Source of the DNA: Acidobacteriota bacterium
Lineage (GTDB): Bacteria; Acidobacteriota; Thermoanaerobaculia; Multivoradales; JAGPDF01
NCBI GenBank assembly: GCA_012521815.1
Contig: JAAYLR010000141.1
Location: 414 to 64,413 of the forward strand
Length of the DNA: 64,000 nucleotides
Direction of reading: 5' to 3'
A program made the translations under genes and the position numbers. Numbering within the stretch: position 1 is the first letter of the stretch; each line of letters opens with the position of its first letter. The notes beneath the pieces are model-generated. The model did not search any database and was not told where the DNA came from. It worked only from the letters and a program-made list of their open reading frames with translations. Shown here one piece after another: positions 1,203-7,976 of the stretch.

Positions 1203-1409
1203 ATGCGCATCCAGGGCAGTGTCAAGTGGTTCAACGAGGCCAAGGGCTTCGGCTTCATCACCCGTGACGACGGCGAGAAGGACTGCTTCGTCCACCACAC
1301 CGGCATCGCGGGCGAGGGCTTCAAGACCCTCCACGAGGGTGAGCGGGTCGAGTTCGACGTGGTCCAGGGCCAGAAGGGCCCGGCGGCCGCCAACGTCACC
1401 CGCATCTGA
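1203..1409 (+). CDS. cspA: cold-shock protein, CspA family
   Basis: 68 aa; sequence [35 protein letters not shown] with RNP-1/RNP-2 motifs; AGGAG RBS 8 nt upstream of the ATG. The track's long 423..1409 ORF is an upstream shadow extension. Confidence 0.95.
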
Positions 1410-1432
1410 CGACCGACTGACCAGACGCCAAC

Positions 1433-1475
1433 GGGGCCGGTTCGCCGCAGGGCGAGCCGGCCCCGATTCTTTTCC
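1433..1475. terminator. rho-independent terminator (bidirectional, between convergent cspA and ELW-repeat gene)
   Basis: GGGGCCGG (1433-1440), a 16-nt loop, CCGGCCCC (1457-1464), followed by GATTCTTTTCC. Confidence 0.5.
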
Positions 1476-1514: not shown

Positions 1515-2804
1515 TCAGGGCGTCGCCGCGTCCCAGCGATGCGGGCCGCCGGACTCCCAGCCATCACGGAAGAGCGGCACCGAGCCGTCGGCCGTCAGGC
1601 CCCAGAGCTCGAACCCCCGCTCCCCGTCGTTTGCCGCGAAGAGCAGCGTGCTCCCCACCTGCCGGAAGAGGCCCGGGCTCGACGACGCCGGACCCGGCGC
1701 GATGTCCGTCAGCCGCCACGTCCCCGCCGAGGTCCCGTCGGTCCGCCACGCCTCCCGCCCCCACGCCGGCGTCCACGCCGAGAAGACCAGCCGCCCGTCG
1801 AGCCAGGCGAGATCGCCCGGGCAGGAGGAGCCGGCTCCCGGCACGAGATCGGCGGCCGGCACGGTCCCCGCCGGGGTGCCGTCCGTCACCCAGAGCTCGC
1901 GGCCGAGCGCCGGATGCTCCGCCACGAAGAAGAGGCGCTCCCCCGCCGGGGTCAGCTCCCGCGGCGAGGAGGGCCGCGGCCCGGGCATCAGGTCGCCGAG
2001 GAGGTATGTCCCCGCCTCCGTCCCGTCGCTCACCCAGAGCTCCTCGCCGTGCACCCCGTCGTCGGCCGCGAAGAGCACGCGGTCCCCGAGCGCGGCGACC
2101 TTGCCCTCGAGCCGCGGCTCGAACGGAGCGGCGAGCGGGTCGCCGAGCTGGATCGCCGAGGCCGGACCCGGCGCAATATCGCGCACGCGCCGCGTTCCCG
2201 CCGGCGTCCCGTCCGTCCACCAGAGCTCGGTGCCGTACGCCTCCTCGCTCACCACCACCGCGAAACCGGTACCCGCCGGAACGATCCCCCGGATCCAGTC
2301 GACGCTGCCCGCCGCGAGCAGCTCCACGGGCGAGGCATCGGGGGCGAGGAAGTGGAGGCTCCTGCAGCCGTAGAGCGCCCCGAGCGGCGAGCTCGCGAGG
2401 TTCCAAGGGGTGCAGAGCACGGGGTCGATGGCGTCGGCCAGAAACGAGCCGTCCTCCGTGCCGTCGCTCTCCCAGAGCCCCTGTGGCGTGCCGAGGAGCC
2501 AGCCGGATCCGAACGGAACCGCCGGGGGCTCCCAGTACCCGGTACCCTGGATCCCCGGTACGAACGGTACCCCGGTTCCCTCCGGAAGGCCGTCGGTGCG
2601 CAGGAGGCCGGTCTCCATCGAATCGGGCTCCTGGGCGTGGACCACGGCGAACCCGCCGTTGGCGGCACAGGTCGCGCTGTTCCAAGCCACCTCCCGCAGC
2701 GCCTCGAGGCCACCGATCGCGCCGTCGCTCGACACGAGCCGGGCCGTCGCCTCCGCGGTCCAGATCCGCGCCTCGTAGAGGAGCCGGTTCCCGGTCACCT
2801 CCAT
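1515..2804 (-). CDS. ELWxxDGT-repeat protein, distal segment (probably the frameshifted continuation of the upstream gene)
   Basis: Repeats TELWWTDGTPAGT, EELWVSDGTEAGT, RELWVTDGTPAGT and REAWRTDGTSAGT. The first in-frame ATG (2804) overlaps the stop of the upstream gene in the +1 frame right after a G6/C6 homopolymer. Repeat periodicity is maintained across the junction. Confidence 0.55.
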   Translation of the reverse strand: MEVTGNRLLYEARIWTAEATARLVSSDGAIGGLEALREVAWNSATCAANGGFAVVHAQEPDSMETGLLRTDGLPEGTGVPFVPGIQGTGYWEPPAVPFGSGWLLGTPQGLWESDGTEDGSFLADAIDPVLCTPWNLASSPLGALYGCRSLHFLAPDASPVELLAAGSVDWIRGIVPAGTGFAVVVSEEAYGTELWWTDGTPAGTRRVRDIAPGPASAIQLGDPLAAPFEPRLEGKVAALGDRVLFAADDGVHGEELWVSDGTEAGTYLLGDLMPGPRPSSPRELTPAGERLFFVAEHPALGRELWVTDGTPAGTVPAADLVPGAGSSCPGDLAWLDGRLVFSAWTPAWGREAWRTDGTSAGTWRLTDIAPGPASSSPGLFRQVGSTLLFAANDGERGFELWGLTADGSVPLFRDGWESGGPHRWDAATP

Positions 2805-4387
2805 GCAGCGGGTGGGGGGTTGTGGAGAAAACGGGGAAAATCGCGGGGCGGCTGCAGGCTCGAGGATTGCCAGCCGAGCTGCCGTACGACGCTCGTGGTG
2901 TCGGCCGCCGGATCGGCCCGCCAGAGGCGCACCCCCGCCTCCGGATCCCAGGTCGGGAGCAGGAGCTGGCCGCCGAGCGCCACCGGTGGGAGTCGCGAGG
3001 CGAAGTCCGGCAGCCCCGGGTACTCCTCTCCCGGGGTGAGGTCGGAGATCCGCCGCGTCCCCGCGGGCGTGAGGTCGGTCGCCCAGAGCTCCAGCCCCGC
3101 GCCCGAGCCGTCGTCGGCGAGGAAGACGACCTCGCCACCGGCCACGGCCGAGAAGATCCCGCTCAGATACGCCAGATCGACCGCCGCCGAGCTCTCCGGG
3201 CCGGGGCGCAGATCGGCGAGCGGGGTAGCCACGAGCCCGTCGACGACCCACGGTTCGGCGCCGGTCGCCGGCTCCCAGACGGCGAGGAAGAGGCGCCCGC
3301 CGAGGCTCGATGCCCAGGCGCCGACGTACGGCCGGGCATCGTCCGGGAGCGGAACGAGCTCGGTGCCGCTCACGGTCCCGTCGGAGCGCACGAGCTCGGT
3401 CGCGCCCTCTGGCGTCTGCCCCACGAGATAGCCGGAGTCGCCAGCGATGACGATAACGCTGTTCAGGCCGCCGTAGCCCACCCGGCGGAGGAAGAAGGTG
3501 CCGGCCACCGTACCGTCGGAACGCCAGAGCTCGATGTCGTGGTTCGGCTGCGCCACGGTGTAAAGGAGCGTGCCGTCAGGCAGCGAGTTGAACCGCCGGT
3601 AGGCACCCGAGACGCTCTGCCAGCCGCCTTCGGGCGGCAGGCTGGAGAGCCGCTGCGTCCCCGCCGCCGTGCCGTCGCTCACCCAGAGCCCGGTGCGCTC
3701 CGCCGGCGCCCCGGCGATGGCGAAGAAGAGGTGCCCCGCTCCCGGCTCCAGCACGCCGATACCGGCGCTCTCCGGGCCAGGGGACAGATCGCGCACGAGC
3801 CAGGTTCCCGCCGCCGTGCCGTCGGAGCGCCAGAGCTCCGCACCGTGCACCCCATCGTCGGGTACGAAGAAGAGGAGACCCGAGGCCACGAGGAAGTTGC
3901 GCGGCGCGGACGAGTCGAGCCCCGGCCGGAGGTCGGCGACGAGGCGGGTCCCCCCCGCCGTGCCGTCGGTCGCCCAGAGCTCCACCCCGTGCACCCCGTC
4001 GTGGCCGGCGAAGAAGAGCGTCGAGCCGAGCACCGCGAGCGCCCCCGGGGCGCCGATGGCGGAGGTGCCACAGGCTCCCGGGCAGAGATCGCGCACCATC
4101 CAGGTGCCGAGCGCCGTGCCGTCGGAGCGCCAGAGCTCCTCGCCATGCACGCCGTCGTCGTGGAAGAAGTAGAGTGCGCCGCCCATCGCGACCGGCTGCG
4201 CCCGGAGGCCGATGAAACTCCACGGGTAGTCCACGCCCACGCCGAGGTCGTGGACGAGGTAGGGACCGTCCGCCGGGGCCGGCGCTGCTAGGACGGCGAG
4301 CTGGAACGCCACGGCAAGCAGCACGAGAGCCGCGTCGCGGCGGGCGCGGCGGCCAACGAACGGCATGGTCGGCTCGGGCCTGGCCAT
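2795..4387 (-). CDS. secreted ELWxxDGT-repeat protein (N-terminal signal peptide)
   Basis: Start ATG at 4387 has a GGAGGTGAG SD 7 nt upstream. N-terminus MARPEPTMPFVGRRARRDAALVLLAVAFQLAVLAAPAPA looks like a signal peptide, followed by about 9 repeats of the ~50-aa unit ...DDGVHGxELWRSDGTAAGT.LVRDL.PG.... The track's 1609-aa ORF (2795..7624) is an upstream shadow extension across ettA. Confidence 0.75.
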   Translation of the reverse strand: MARPEPTMPFVGRRARRDAALVLLAVAFQLAVLAAPAPADGPYLVHDLGVGVDYPWSFIGLRAQPVAMGGALYFFHDDGVHGEELWRSDGTALGTWMVRDLCPGACGTSAIGAPGALAVLGSTLFFAGHDGVHGVELWATDGTAGGTRLVADLRPGLDSSAPRNFLVASGLLFFVPDDGVHGAELWRSDGTAAGTWLVRDLSPGPESAGIGVLEPGAGHLFFAIAGAPAERTGLWVSDGTAAGTQRLSSLPPEGGWQSVSGAYRRFNSLPDGTLLYTVAQPNHDIELWRSDGTVAGTFFLRRVGYGGLNSVIVIAGDSGYLVGQTPEGATELVRSDGTVSGTELVPLPDDARPYVGAWASSLGGRLFLAVWEPATGAEPWVVDGLVATPLADLRPGPESSAAVDLAYLSGIFSAVAGGEVVFLADDGSGAGLELWATDLTPAGTRRISDLTPGEEYPGLPDFASRLPPVALGGQLLLPTWDPEAGVRLWRADPAADTTSVVRQLGWQSSSLQPPRDFPRFLHNPPPAAWR

Positions 4388-4564
4388 CGTCTCACCTCCG
4401 GGGATCGATGCGCGCCAAGATACCAGACAACGCCGCGCCGGGCTGTGAGGCGTTGCACTCCCCGGTCCGCCCCGGGCGGGGGGCGATAGACTCCGCGCTG
4501 CCGTCGCGGCGCCGCCCCGAGCGGGCGCCGCCCTCACTCTCCCGTTCGCCAGGGGGTTTCGCGC

Positions 4565-6223
4565 ATGCCGCAGTTCATCTACCACATGAAGAACCTGCGC
4601 AAGGTCACGCCGCAGGGCAAGGAGATCCTCAAGGGGATCTGGCTCTCGTTCTTCTACGGCGCCAAGATCGGCGTCATCGGCCACAACGGCGCCGGCAAGT
4701 CGACGCTCCTGCGGATCATGGCCGGGCTCGACCCCGACTTCGACGGCGAGGCGAAGCTGCTCGACGGCTACACCGTCGGCATGCTGCCGCAGGAGCCGGT
4801 GCTGCCGGCCGGGCGGACGGTGCAGGAGGTGGTCGAGGAGGCGGTGGCGGAGAAGAAGGCGATCCTCGCGCGCTACGACGAGCTCGCCGCGAACTACTCC
4901 GACGAGACCGCCGACGAGATGGGGCGCCTCCAGGACCAGATCGACGCCCAGAACCTCTGGGAGCTCGACCGCCACCTCGAGGTGGCGATGGACGCGCTCC
5001 GCCTCCCGCCGGCCGATCAGGAGGTCTCGACGCTCTCCGGCGGCGAGAAGCGGCGGGTCGCACTCTGCCGCCTGCTGCTGACCGCTCCCGACCTGCTGCT
5101 GCTCGACGAGCCGACGAACCACCTCGACGCCGAGTCGGTCGCCTGGCTCGAGCATCACCTGCAGGAGTACAAGGGGACGGTGGTCGCCATCACCCACGAC
5201 CGCTACTTCCTCGACAACGTCGCCGGCTGGATCCTCGAGCTCGACCGGGGCGCCGGGATCCCCTGGGAGGGGAACTACTCCTCCTGGCTCGACCAGAAGC
5301 AGCAGCTCCTCGCGAAGGAGGAGAAGGAGGCGACCGCCCGGCGGCGGACCCTCGAGCGCGAGCTGGAGTGGATCCGGATGGCACCGCGCGCCCGCCACGC
5401 CAAGGGGAAGGCGCGCCTGAACGCCTACGAACAGCTCCTCGCCGAGGACCAGGCGGCCGAGAAGCGCGGTCCCGCCAACGAGATCCTGATCCCGCCCGGG
5501 CCGCGCCTCGGCGAGAAGGTGATCGTCGCCGAGGGGCTCACCAAGGCGTACGGCGAAAAGCTCCTCTTCGCGGACCTCTCCTTCATCCTGCCGCGCTCGG
5601 CGATCGTCGGCGTCATCGGCCCGAACGGCGCCGGCAAGACGACGCTGATGCGGATCTTCGTCGGCCAGGAGAAGCCCGACGCCGGCACCCTGACGATCGG
5701 CGAGACGGTCGTGCTCTCCTACGTCGATCAGAGCCGCGAGACCCTCGACCCGGAGAAGACGGTCTTCCAGGAGATCTCCGACGGCGGCCGCGACCTCGTG
5801 CTCGTGGGCCGGCGCGAGGTGCCGTCGCGCGCCTACTGCTCCTGGTTCAACTTCCGCGGCGCGGATCAGCAGAAGAAGGTGCGCGATCTGTCGGGCGGCG
5901 AGCGCAACCGCCTCCACCTCGCCCGGCTGCTCAAGAGCGACGGCAACGTGATCCTCTTCGACGAGCCGACCAACGATCTCGACGTCGACACCCTGCGGGC
6001 GCTCGAAGAGGCCCTCCTCGCCTTTCCCGGCTGCGCCGTGGTGGTCTCCCACGACCGCTGGTTCCTCGACCGGATCGCCACCCACATCCTCGCCTTCGAA
6101 GGGGAGTCGCAGGTCGTCTGGTTCGAGGGCAACTATCAGGAGTACGAAGCCGACCGCCGCCGCCGTCTCGGCACGGAGGCCGATCAGCCGCACCGGATCC
6201 GGTACCGGAAGCTCGTGCGCTGA
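4565..6223 (+). CDS. ettA: energy-dependent translational throttle protein EttA (ABC-F ATPase)
   Basis: 552 aa; MPQFIYHMKNLRKVTPQGKEILKGIWLSFFYGAKIGVIGHNGAGKSTLLRIMAG; two ABC domains, with Walker A at GHNGAGKST and GPNGAGKTT. Confidence 0.95.
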   Translation: MPQFIYHMKNLRKVTPQGKEILKGIWLSFFYGAKIGVIGHNGAGKSTLLRIMAGLDPDFDGEAKLLDGYTVGMLPQEPVLPAGRTVQEVVEEAVAEKKAILARYDELAANYSDETADEMGRLQDQIDAQNLWELDRHLEVAMDALRLPPADQEVSTLSGGEKRRVALCRLLLTAPDLLLLDEPTNHLDAESVAWLEHHLQEYKGTVVAITHDRYFLDNVAGWILELDRGAGIPWEGNYSSWLDQKQQLLAKEEKEATARRRTLERELEWIRMAPRARHAKGKARLNAYEQLLAEDQAAEKRGPANEILIPPGPRLGEKVIVAEGLTKAYGEKLLFADLSFILPRSAIVGVIGPNGAGKTTLMRIFVGQEKPDAGTLTIGETVVLSYVDQSRETLDPEKTVFQEISDGGRDLVLVGRREVPSRAYCSWFNFRGADQQKKVRDLSGGERNRLHLARLLKSDGNVILFDEPTNDLDVDTLRALEEALLAFPGCAVVVSHDRWFLDRIATHILAFEGESQVVWFEGNYQEYEADRRRRLGTEADQPHRIRYRKLVR

Positions 6224-6331
6224 GCCGCGCGCCGGGAACGGCGGCCACCGGCCCTGACACAGCGCGGGAAGCGCGGCGATCGCGTTCTTCGCGCTCGTTC
6301 CCGCCGCCCGCGCGGTAGACTCGGAGCGATC

Positions 6332-6997
6332 ATGTACGCGCGCCTCCTCGATCTCCGCCTGGCCCCCGGCGCCACCCCGGCGTTCGCCGGCCTCTACCGC
6401 CAACGGATCTCGCCGACCCTCACCGCGACCCCCGGCTGCCTCGGCGCCGTGGCCCTCGCGGCGACGGGGCACGAGGAGAAGATCCTCTCCCTCACCCTCT
6501 GGCGGGCCGCCGAGGCCGCCGACGCCTACGACCGGGAGGGCCGCTTCGGCCAGCTCCTCGGCGAGACCGCCTCTCTCTTCCCCGGCCGGGACCGGGACGC
6601 CGATCCGCTCGACGACGGGGGCGAAGAGCTCGTCATCGAGGGGTATGCCGCCGAGCTCGCGCTGCCGCCGGCGCTCGGCAGGGCGCTGAGCGGCGTCACC
6701 TTCGCCCGCACCATCGTGGTCGAGGCCGCCGCCGGACGGGAGGAAGAGATCGAGCGGCGCGCCTGGGCGGCCGTCGACAGGGCCGCCGAGGAGGCGCTCG
6801 GCCTCGTCTCGATCTTCCTCATGCGCGGCCTCGACCGGCGGGAGCGGACGCTCGTCCTCGGCCTCTGGGAGAGCGAGGAGGCGGCCGGTCGGTGGGAGCG
6901 CTCCGAGCCGCACCTCGCGCTCCTGCGCGATCTCGAGAGCGCCGGGCTCGCGGCCGAGATCACGCCTTACCGGGTGCTCTGCGCGGGCGCCTTCTGA
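6332..6997 (+). CDS. hypothetical protein with two tandem ABM/Dabb-like (antibiotic biosynthesis monooxygenase-like) halves
   Basis: 221 aa, GGAG RBS. Both halves show an ...L.LW.S.EAA.A... pattern (LSLTLWRAAEAADAY and LVLGLWESEEAAGRW). Low-confidence family call. Confidence 0.5.
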   Translation: MYARLLDLRLAPGATPAFAGLYRQRISPTLTATPGCLGAVALAATGHEEKILSLTLWRAAEAADAYDREGRFGQLLGETASLFPGRDRDADPLDDGGEELVIEGYAAELALPPALGRALSGVTFARTIVVEAAAGREEEIERRAWAAVDRAAEEALGLVSIFLMRGLDRRERTLVLGLWESEEAAGRWERSEPHLALLRDLESAGLAAEITPYRVLCAGAF

Positions 6998-7581
6998 GCG
7001 ATCACCGCCAGCAGCTCGTCGACGATCCGCAGCGTCAACCCCCAGATCGTCCGCCCCTCGTAGCGGACGCACGGCGTCGGCAGCGGCACCCCGCGAAGGA
7101 CCCAGGTGAAGGCGCTGCGGTGAGCCGGTTCGGCGAGGTAGGCGAGCGGCACCCAGAGCGCCTCCTGGACCTCGGCGCTCGCCGTGAACGCGGGATCGCC
7201 GTGGATCGCGAAGACGAACGGCGCGACGCTGTGCGGGAGCCGGCCGTGCCGCAGATGGGTGCGGACCTCGGAGAGCTGCCCGAGCAGGCGGCCTCCCGCT
7301 TCGAGGTCGAGCGCGAGCTCCTCGCGCGTCTCCCGGATCGCCGCCGCCAGCGGACTGGCGTCGTCCGGATCGACCCGGCCGCCGGGCAGCCCCATCTGCC
7401 CCGACCAGGGGTCGCGCGGGTGCTCGGCCCGGCGGATGAAGAGGAGCTCGGCGCCCGGTTCGCGATCGCGGAGCACCGCCGCCACCGCCGCCTTGTGCGC
7501 CAGGAGCACCTCCTCCTCGCGGCGGGGTGCGAACCCGCGAAGCGCCGAGCCGGCACGGGCGACGTCGTAACGAACGGCCAT
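6967..7581 (-). CDS. NUDIX hydrolase, CoA pyrophosphatase-like
   Basis: Nudix box GLPGGRVDPDDASPLAAAIRETREELAL preceded by the NuCoA-like LFIRRAEHPRDPWSGQMGLPGG. Start chosen at MAVRYDV (7581); the track ORF starts 34 codons earlier in Arg-rich shadow. Confidence 0.8.
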   Translation of the reverse strand: MAVRYDVARAGSALRGFAPRREEEVLLAHKAAVAAVLRDREPGAELLFIRRAEHPRDPWSGQMGLPGGRVDPDDASPLAAAIRETREELALDLEAGGRLLGQLSEVRTHLRHGRLPHSVAPFVFAIHGDPAFTASAEVQEALWVPLAYLAEPAHRSAFTWVLRGVPLPTPCVRYEGRTIWGLTLRIVDELLAVIAQKAPAQSTR

Positions 7582-7622
7582 CGCCACAGATTCTCGCACC
7601 GGGTAAGCTCGGGCGGCAGCCC

Positions 7623-7976
7623 ATGCGCTCACCCGGCTCCTCCCGCCCCGTCTACGCCACCGGCCGCGGCCGCCTCTGCCCACGCTGCGGCGCGCCGGTG
7701 GACGCCTGCCGCTGCGCCGCGACGGCCGCCGAGCCGCTCCCGGCGCGCATCGAACCGGTGCTGCGCATCGAGCGCGCCGGCCGCGGCGGCAAGACGGTGA
7801 CGGTGATCGCCGGCCTGCCGCGCAACCGGCCGTTCCTCCAGGAGCTCGCCGCCGAGCTGAAGCGCGCCTGCGGCAGCGGCGGCACCGCGGGCGACGGCCA
7901 GGTGGAGATCCAGGGCGACCACCGCGAGACGGTGCGCGCGCGGCTCGCCGCCAGGGGCTGGCGCGTCAGGGGCTGA
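7623..7976 (+). CDS. yciH: translation initiation factor SUI1/YciH family
   Basis: MRSPGSSRPVYATGRGRLCPRCGAPVDACRC...RIERAGRGGKTVTVIAGL...LKRACGSGGT...EIQGDHRETVRARLAARGWRV, a typical YciH. It lies divergent from the NUDIX gene across a 41-bp gap. Confidence 0.85.
   Translation: MRSPGSSRPVYATGRGRLCPRCGAPVDACRCAATAAEPLPARIEPVLRIERAGRGGKTVTVIAGLPRNRPFLQELAAELKRACGSGGTAGDGQVEIQGDHRETVRARLAARGWRVRG

Follow-up and report, generated by a model that had tools for sequence, protein, structure and literature searches.

We have analyzed a locus on the minus strand of a 64-kb stretch of DNA (the window, meaning the whole 64,000 nucleotides) in which two adjacent open reading frames, ORF1 and ORF2, code for arrays of the ELWxxDGT repeat. 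The features of the region, with positions counted along the window, are the following.

4395 to 4399, minus strand: Shine-Dalgarno sequence GGAGG of ORF1, 7 nt 5' of its ATG (read directly)
4387 to 2795, minus strand: ORF1 (530 aa), which covers the N-terminal part of the ancestral gene and comprises a signal peptide, nine repeats of the ELWxxDGT type and an out-of-frame tail of 13 aa
4271 to 4387, minus strand: predicted Sec signal peptide of ORF1, residues 1-39 (translation inspected)
2837 to 2838, minus strand: site of a 1-nt deletion, the sole gap in the alignment with the intact allele of contig L024
2795 to 2836, minus strand: out-of-frame tail of ORF1, PRFLHNPPPAAWR, with its TGA stop (translation and alignment with the intact allele)
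2814 to 2819: homopolymer, G6 on the plus and C6 on the minus strand, unchanged in 14 carrier loci
1515 to 2837, minus strand: C-terminal portion of the ancestral gene, shifted to the -1 frame, with about nine further repeats, annotated as ORF2
2804 to 1515, minus strand: ORF2 as called from the ATG at 2804, 429 aa
2795 to 2804, minus strand: overlap of ORF1 and ORF2, 10 nt, ATGGAGGTGA, with the ORF2 ATG at 2804-2802 (read directly)
2797 to 2795, minus strand: TGA stop of ORF1 (read directly)

An initial annotation had described an upstream ORF with a signal peptide and about nine repeats that stops at 2795, followed by a downstream ORF without a signal peptide of its own whose first ATG, at 2804, overlaps that stop. 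Translation of the minus strand bore out each of these points. The N-terminus of ORF1 is signal-like, with an n-region RRARRD, an h-region ALVLLAVAFQLAVLAA and a predicted cleavage site between APA and DG, and its residues 13-33 form a lone helix in the AF2 model. In the translation of ORF2 neither a signal peptide nor a hydrophobic N-terminus was found, and no Shine-Dalgarno sequence was detected upstream of the ATG at 2804. The motif GGAGGTGAGACGATG is located 5' of every full-length copy of the gene in related contigs, with nothing comparable at ORF2. The stop of ORF1 overlaps a GTG (as GTGA) 7 nt downstream of the ORF2 ATG, a context for termination-reinitiation that is fortuitous. The NCBI records (P0124) use the alternative GTG start at 2798, which gives a protein of 427 aa. 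ORF2 had been correctly assigned to another frame than ORF1, but the +1 given for it is, in the direction of translation, -1 (= +2), so that one extra base in the DNA rejoins both frames. A scan for promoters and terminators found only a hairpin (1432-1465), and this one serves the cold-shock gene that converges on the locus.

Both halves belong to the TIGR04534 family (ELWxxDGT_rpt, repeat stretches of about 47 residues), with scores of 303.6 bits over 7 scored stretches for ORF1 and 250.5 bits over 5 stretches for ORF2, against a curated cutoff of 65 bits. A Pfam search gave no family match for either ORF, and a full-text literature search for 'ELWxxDGT' found no paper. The repeat periodicity previously noticed across the junction holds, since in the repaired protein the repeat cores are located at residues 433, 487 and 541, i.e., at a spacing of 54 + 54 residues. 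With about 957 aa and roughly 18-19 repeats, the product of the ancestral gene was a secreted ELWxxDGT-repeat protein, probably a beta-propeller. Relatives of 950-1150 aa, several of them named 'ELWxxDGT repeat protein' by JGI or NCBI, have the same array as the two ORFs combined, uninterrupted in a single polypeptide, whereas here the array is broken after repeat 9 by the frameshift.

The fused query recovered P0001 (963 aa, 74% identity), P0002 (954 aa, 70%) and P0003 (966 aa, 64%), all at 100% coverage, and P0007 (944 aa, 49%) at 96% coverage, together with additional proteins of about 950 aa at about 43% identity. A comparison with orthologues had been suggested in the initial annotation, and those recovered (944-966 aa, coverage 96-100%) are all single continuous proteins that run uninterrupted through the junction. 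A scan of a genome collection yielded one close relative (Thermoanaerobaculia MAG ACID-4), the others being distant and at the level of paralogues.

The most informative sequence came from the 90% cluster of ORF1 and ORF2, which contains one unsplit member, P0126 (957 aa), encoded on L024, the only contig from which this intact A-type allele is known. Its gene is 96.2% identical to that of the window over an alignment of 2874 columns with exactly one gap, of 1 nt, and differs from it at 109 other positions. Where L024 has GATTTCTCCCCG the window has GATTT-TCCCCG. The C of the ancestral TTC Phe codon has been lost, giving GATTTTCCCCG, and GAT TTC TCC has become GAT TTT CC between window positions 2838 and 2837. 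At the protein level P0126 reads PPRDF-SPFSLQPPTRCMEV, while the window has PPRDF in frame 0 and then SPFSPQPPTRCMEV in frame -1. A B-type allele (contig L012) likewise reads GATTTC at this position. The continuous orthologues and the 957-aa allele with its one gap support the earlier proposal that a frameshift has divided a single gene of about 960 aa.

The site of the lesion is not the one that had been proposed. The G6 run of the plus strand is present at 2814-2819 as described, but the deletion is at 2838/2837, 18 nt upstream of the C6 run in the sense of the minus strand, and the lost base was a C between T's (TTT[C]TCCCC), which is not a homopolymer contraction with respect to the intact allele. 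At the position of the C6 run L024 has CCCCCG and is in frame there. There are 32 G6/C6 runs in the 64 kb of the window, at 73.5% GC. Judged from the alignment, the run at 2814-2819 is a bystander, not the lesion. Placing the indel by means of the orthologues at 64-74% protein identity had been tried and rejected, the DNA being too divergent locally and giving only a hint of the T4C4 region; the 96%-identical allele resolved the position that these distant orthologues had left vague. The case warns against taking a homopolymer for the lesion simply because it is close by, as the close intact allele put the deletion 18 nt away.

The frameshifted form is widespread. Proteins identical to ORF1 and to ORF2 occur in 81 and 106 blocks, respectively, of the assembly collection, the blocks being independent ENA, JGI, NCBI and Logan assemblies from unrelated projects, with contig names in both the NODE_ and the k141_ styles. 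The junction sequence was identical in the carrier loci that were read (14/14), and every cluster fragment reaching the junction ends in PRFLHNPPPAAWR. A pattern scan of metagenome DNA allowing 0-3 bases at the deletion site added only two contigs, each with the frameshift. The deletion is real and is fixed in a widespread wastewater/anaerobic-digester population of a Thermoanaerobaculia (Acidobacteriota) bacterium.

We have also examined the predicted structures. The AF2 model of a full-length orthologue (pLDDT 82.9, pTM 0.84) and that of ORF1 alone (pLDDT 82.3, pTM 0.81) are both all-beta. In the former the break lies just past F515, at the transition from repeat 9 to repeat 10 and within the segment 513-523, one of only three internal low-confidence segments. 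The best TM-scores of the ORF1 model in Foldseek were with 10-bladed Vps10p propellers (TMq 0.44-0.49 over 430-515 aligned columns). Large propellers, i.e., the 10-bladed Vps10p domains of sortilin and SorLA, the YWTD propellers of LRP2 and LRP6 and GH74, gave the best matches, and the models share with them an all-beta architecture of four-strand repeat units, but with about 10-12% sequence identity and only moderate TM-scores. As far as the models go, the resemblance is one of fold class and is no evidence that function is shared. A profile search of PDB sequences gave nothing meaningful. The models suggest that the nine repeats of ORF1 could form a closed, stable propeller.

We consider it likely, with a probability of about 0.83, that an ancestral gene of about 957 aa suffered a 1-nt deletion that left a truncated, exported ORF1 product and, in ORF2, a young pseudogene remnant. 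The lineage of the window has lost a single C between 2838 and 2837, so that the frame set by the normal start is left after Phe-517, the 13 wrong residues of the tail follow and the stop is reached at 2795. Since ORF1 has retained a ribosome-binding site, the signal peptide and nine repeats, its product is probably a truncated secreted propeller; it would still be exported, as the signal peptide plus the first nine repeats, and may still be able to fold independently into a large propeller. ORF2 would be expressed at best at a low level, via termination-reinitiation at the overlapping ATG or GTG, and its product would stay in the cytoplasm. Because it has neither ribosome-binding site nor signal peptide, ORF2 is most likely a young pseudogene remnant, probably dead and so far free of further lesions, and no secondary stops or indels were found in the ORF2 of the carriers. 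The recent frameshift pseudogene, with its single indel against the intact allele, is the sole survivor of the three options that the initial annotation had left standing, the other two being a sequencing error and slipped-strand phase variation.

The split is an ordinary gene-decay event. Like other frameshift pseudogenes, the locus has a one-base indel when compared with intact orthologues, close or distant, a premature stop after 13 out-of-frame codons and a downstream remnant without signals for translation or export. The difference is that the disrupted allele is here the commonest public form of the locus and shows no secondary decay. The dN/dS against the intact allele is 0.28 in the 3' half and 0.41 in the 5' half, i.e., not raised in the 3' half. 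Such values are compatible with a very recent lesion as well as with ORF2 still being in use, and do not discriminate between the two. The SNPs among carriers, 7 of 8 at third codon positions, were considered as a sign of selection on ORF2 and rejected; nearly all of them are shared with other alleles and were imported by recombination, and hence carry no information on selection.

A functional split gene, in which ORF2 is translated by coupling at the ATG/GTGA and both halves are under selection, possibly as two subunits of a propeller, seems to us improbable. In its favour, coupled genes typically overlap as these do (GTGA, with the ATG 7 nt 5' of the stop); the array is interrupted about halfway, in a low-confidence loop that separates repeats 9 and 10; ORF1 alone models as a confident unit; and ORF2 is undamaged in all carriers with a dN/dS of 0.28. 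Nevertheless, lacking a signal peptide, ORF2 cannot be exported via Sec to meet ORF1 outside the cell. The two-gene layout was found in no other lineage among the recovered orthologues and the 90% cluster, and the 'start' of ORF2 is merely an internal Met of the intact protein (MEV/MEA in P0126 and P0001, Leu in P0002 and P0003). Recency plus recombination imports account for the low dN/dS.

Slipped-strand phase variation, with changes in the length of the G6/C6 (or T4C4) run switching the full-length secreted protein ON and OFF, we regard as highly unlikely. Secreted repeat proteins are a class often subject to phase-variable switching, and the C6 run lies inside the out-of-frame stretch, where a +1 change would restore the frame. 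The locus resembles homopolymer contingency loci in combining a secreted repeat protein, a frameshift and a nearby G/C run, but differs from them in that the lesion is outside the run, no length polymorphism was seen and public data hold no ON form of the same allele. There was no tract-length variant in the 14 carrier loci, which are consensus assemblies from which rare minority variants could escape. We modelled five ON proteins (C restored, C7, C4, C5 and T5), and an exact look-up among about 15 billion proteins found none of these repaired forms. The sole intact allele, with its 109 other differences and CCCCCG at the run, represents a separate lineage and not a switch variant. Furthermore, runs of 6 are short for contingency loci, and the window contains 32 of them.

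Programmed recoding as the way to a full-length protein, whether through transcriptional slippage or through -1 frameshifting of the ribosome at C CCC CCA (2819-2813), appears very remote. Read in the ORF1 frame, C_CCC_CCA has the formal pattern of an X_XXY_YYZ heptamer, and a -1 slip on it would give ...FLHNPPTRCMEV... in the correct downstream frame; the product of recoding would contain, in one frame across the junction, peptides such as ...RDFSPFSPQPPTR or ...FLHNPPTR. Against it, the orthologues and the close intact allele are encoded in one frame, so the frameshift is not a conserved feature. The 93 nt after the C6 run contain no stimulatory RNA structure; of 200 shuffled versions, 134 were equally or more stable (z = +0.45). 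To our knowledge heptamers with Y = C are not efficient slippery sites, and we know of no transcriptional slippage on a run as short as C6. Finally, a sequencing or assembly error at a homopolymer in a truly continuous gene, for which the position of the lesion among short runs (T4, C4, T4, C6) and the artificial look of the split might speak, has a negligible probability given the same two proteins in 81 and 106 blocks from unrelated projects and differing assemblers, a junction identical across fourteen loci and a lost C flanked by T's, a real deletion predicting raw reads that are uniformly GATTTTCCCC.

Near-identical genomes have at this locus an intact, deeply divergent allele, or tandem copies. 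Two divergent alleles are 54-88% identical over the central 2 kb in genomes that are otherwise about 100% identical, and in public data the frameshifted allele is found in 81-106 blocks, the intact B allele in 40 and the intact A allele in 1. The locus shows allele replacement, tandem copy-number change and loss of repeat units in a near-clonal background, by which this uncharacterised family of putative secreted propellers stands out as fast-evolving, and probably surface-exposed, in an abundant wastewater organism. It is possible, if unlikely, that the secreted propeller is under balanced polymorphism and that the truncation was selected and spread through digester and wastewater populations worldwide instead of arising by neutral decay. 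One conceivable advantage would be the evasion of a phage or predator whose receptor is the full-length protein. The wider interest of the locus is modest. For annotation, the two 'hypothetical proteins' listed in NCBI MAG records of this Thermoanaerobaculia lineage, MBP7755483.1 (530 aa) and MBP7755482.1 (427 aa), are the halves of one gene and should be flagged as frameshifted.

In the window, a TIGR04534 repeat-protein gene is split by a frameshift, and the single-base deletion that causes it is genuine and fixed. The two adjacent ORFs of this gene and their signals are located as follows.

4399-4395, minus strand: GGAGG upstream of ORF1
4387..2795, minus strand: ORF1, 530 aa, stop TGA at 2797-2795
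2814-2819, plus strand: G6 run
2804-2802 (first ATG) to 1515, minus strand: ORF2, 429 aa

Read from its translation, ORF1 starts with RRARRD, a hydrophobic stretch (ALVLLAVAFQLAVLAA) and APA|DG, i.e., a typical export signal, followed by nine ELWxxDGT-type repeats. The translation of ORF2 has no hydrophobic N-terminus, and the 10 nt shared by both ORFs are ATGGAGGTGA. TIGR04534 (ELWxxDGT_rpt, NCBIfam; cutoff 65 bits) matched ORF1 with 303.6 and ORF2 with 250.5 bits, and no Pfam match was obtained for either. In the repaired protein the repeat cores fall at residues 84, 136, 184, 233, 286, 331, 378, 433, 487 and 541, with more up to 879, so that the period of ~54 residues is unbroken over the junction. 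The initial annotation had described two adjacent ELWxxDGT ORFs with the period kept across the junction and no signal peptide in ORF2, all of which are seen in the sequence.

Searching with the fused protein retrieved continuous relatives: P0001 (963 aa, 74% identity, 100% coverage), P0002 (954 aa, 70%), P0003 (966 aa, 64%), P0007 (944 aa, 49%) and several others of ~950 aa at ~43%. The junction is uninterrupted in the sequences of these relatives, where P0001 reads ...SSLRPPQVFDIYAMRPPTGCMEAVGGRLLFEAR... The P0002 and P0003 genes have the window's cold-shock and 385-aa genes as direct neighbours, and that of P0001 is one tandem copy upstream of this pair. These continuous syntenic orthologues indicate that the single gene is ancestral and the split derived. 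Together with the unsplit 957-aa protein P0126 (JGI 3300036594), they bear out the proposal of one gene split by a frameshift.

At 90% identity both window ORFs fall into one cluster, in which P0126 is the only unsplit member. The alignment of its gene (3347-6220 of contig L024) with that of the window spans 2874 columns at 96.2% identity and contains a single gap, GATTTCTCCCCG versus GATTT-TCCCCG in the window, between window bases 2838 and 2837. P0126 reads PPRDF-SPFSLQPPTRCMEV; in the window, PPRDF is encoded in the frame of ORF1 and SPFSPQPPTRCMEV in that of ORF2. GATTTC is also found at this site in the divergent intact allele (B-type; the window allele and the intact L024 copy aligned here are A-type), so the lost base was the C of a TTC codon. 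The initial annotation had blamed the G6/C6 homopolymer. At the position of the C6 run, however, the intact allele has CCCCCG, already in frame, and the single gap places the frameshift 18 nt upstream, outside the run. Past the deletion, ORF1 adds 13 wrong residues (PRFLHNPPPAAWR) and stops. A split by deletion of a single base is an ordinary kind of event.

Other explanations were considered. Programmed frameshifting at the window gene is unsupported: C_CCC_CCA is formally a slippery heptamer, but folding of the 93 nt downstream is no more stable than that of shuffled sequences (z = +0.45) and the frameshift is conserved in no relative. Slipped-strand phase variation, judged from the assembled sequences, is likewise unsupported, since none of five modelled repaired proteins was present among ~15 billion sequences and the junction was identical in 14/14 carrier loci, with T4C4 and C6 both unchanged. 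The intact A-type allele differs from the window gene at 109 other positions, and is therefore a distinct lineage rather than an ON variant.

In the public assembly collection, 81 blocks record the exact ORF1 protein and 106 the exact ORF2 protein; they come from unrelated projects, including Copenhagen sewage, JGI metagenomes, further ENA assemblies, Logan assemblies and NCBI MAGs. Among the first 11 loci fetched, eight matched the window gene at every base they cover (one ends early at a contig end), two carried 4 and 8 SNPs, and one was left out of the comparison for a start seed mismatch. All cluster fragments extending to the junction have the same frameshift tail. Sequencing error is ruled out by these independent blocks and the single junction sequence of the 14 loci. 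Of the original reading the frameshift stands, but neither its location nor the error and phase variation explanations do.

GGAGGTGAGACGATG precedes the genuine starts of the gene family (the window gene and each tandem copy in contigs L024 and L012), and only CCCCCCACCCGCTGC is found upstream of the ORF2 ATG. This ATG encodes just an internal Met (...RCMEV...), at a position with Met in P0001 and P0126 but Leu in P0002 and P0003. NCBI callers start ORF2 at a GTG overlapping the ORF1 stop (GTGA; P0124, 427 aa). Termination-reinitiation could yield a little ORF2 product, which, having no signal peptide, could not be exported along with ORF1. AlphaFold2 gave a confident all-beta model for the full-length P0001 (pLDDT 82.9, pTM 0.84), with best Foldseek matches to multi-propeller proteins (LRP2/LRP6, tricorn, GH74, sortilin). 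Internally this model has just three low-confidence segments, and the position of the break, F515 between repeats 9 and 10, lies in one of them (513-523). ORF1 modelled alone kept pLDDT 82.3 and pTM 0.81, with best TM-scores of 0.44-0.49 over 430-515 columns to 10-bladed Vps10p propellers. From these models it is plausible that ORF1 yields a secreted N-terminal propeller that folds despite its truncation. The 3' half of the gene is most likely a young remnant; the dN/dS against the intact allele (0.41 in the 5' part, 0.28 in the 3' part) does not separate this from the alternatives.

The source names of matching records indicate a Thermoanaerobaculia (Acidobacteriota) host. Of all forms of the locus, the one with the frameshift has been sampled most often. 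Other contigs carry at exactly the same place the intact B-type allele (P0136, 953 aa, 40 blocks), and in its flanks (~7 kb towards the ABC-F gene, 1.5 kb towards the cold-shock gene) each 200-nt bin is 98-100% identical to the window. Within the gene, identity is likewise 98-100% in the 3' ~700 nt, 85-88% in the first 400 nt and only 54-87% in the centre (window ~3790-2234); the alleles were compared over window 2234-4300 and L025 7001-9862. By sequence, this looks like replacement of one allele by another as a cassette, in genomes that are otherwise nearly clonal. Tandem pairs of full-length genes were found in three contigs.

L024, 432-6220: B-type and intact A-type in tandem
L012, 1-5288: two B-type copies in tandem
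L013, 6001-11792: 963 aa and 967 aa in tandem, ATGA overlap

The pair of 963 aa and 967 aa is that of the ACID-4 MAG; in another genome (MCZ7650141.1, P0145) two copies are fused into one gene of 1930 aa. In principle, such a tandem in the window's genome could have been collapsed in a short-read assembly. Nearly all SNPs among frameshift carriers are shared with other alleles, and the frameshift allele of L027 (ERZ795389) contains a ~285-nt tract (equivalent to window 2553-2269) identical to the intact A-type of L024, indicating that recombination between alleles continued after the frameshift arose. Allele divergence, tandem copies and imported SNPs point to a recombinationally active locus.

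Two variant fragments were also seen. P0123 (430 aa, 4438-bp contig) is an ORF1 variant lacking exactly 100 residues (equivalent to window ~4135-3836), two repeat units joined at ELWRSDGT/ELWRSDGT, with the frameshift tail still at its end; either repeat-unit deletion by recombination or assembly collapse would account for it. In P0129/P0133 (2012-bp contig; also L029) an ORF2 fragment continues after ...DDGVHGE as low-complexity sequence unrelated to it (PSASGDSLAPIRAATMIRASTPPAMIR...); this contig of an activated-sludge assembly probably has a chimeric end.

The window (1-64000) has a GC content of 73.5%, and no A or T runs of at least 5 occur in its whole 64,000 nt. Long spurious ORFs are common on both strands, e.g., one of 1609 aa (2795..7624) in which ORF1 is merged with the antisense of the ABC-F gene, and ORF length by itself is uninformative here. 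The cold-shock-domain gene (1203-1409, plus strand) and the ELWxxDGT gene converge. Downstream of the former is a strong GC-rich hairpin of 15 pairs with a T-rich tail behind it (1432-1465, plus strand), which by its appearance would terminate only the cold-shock gene.
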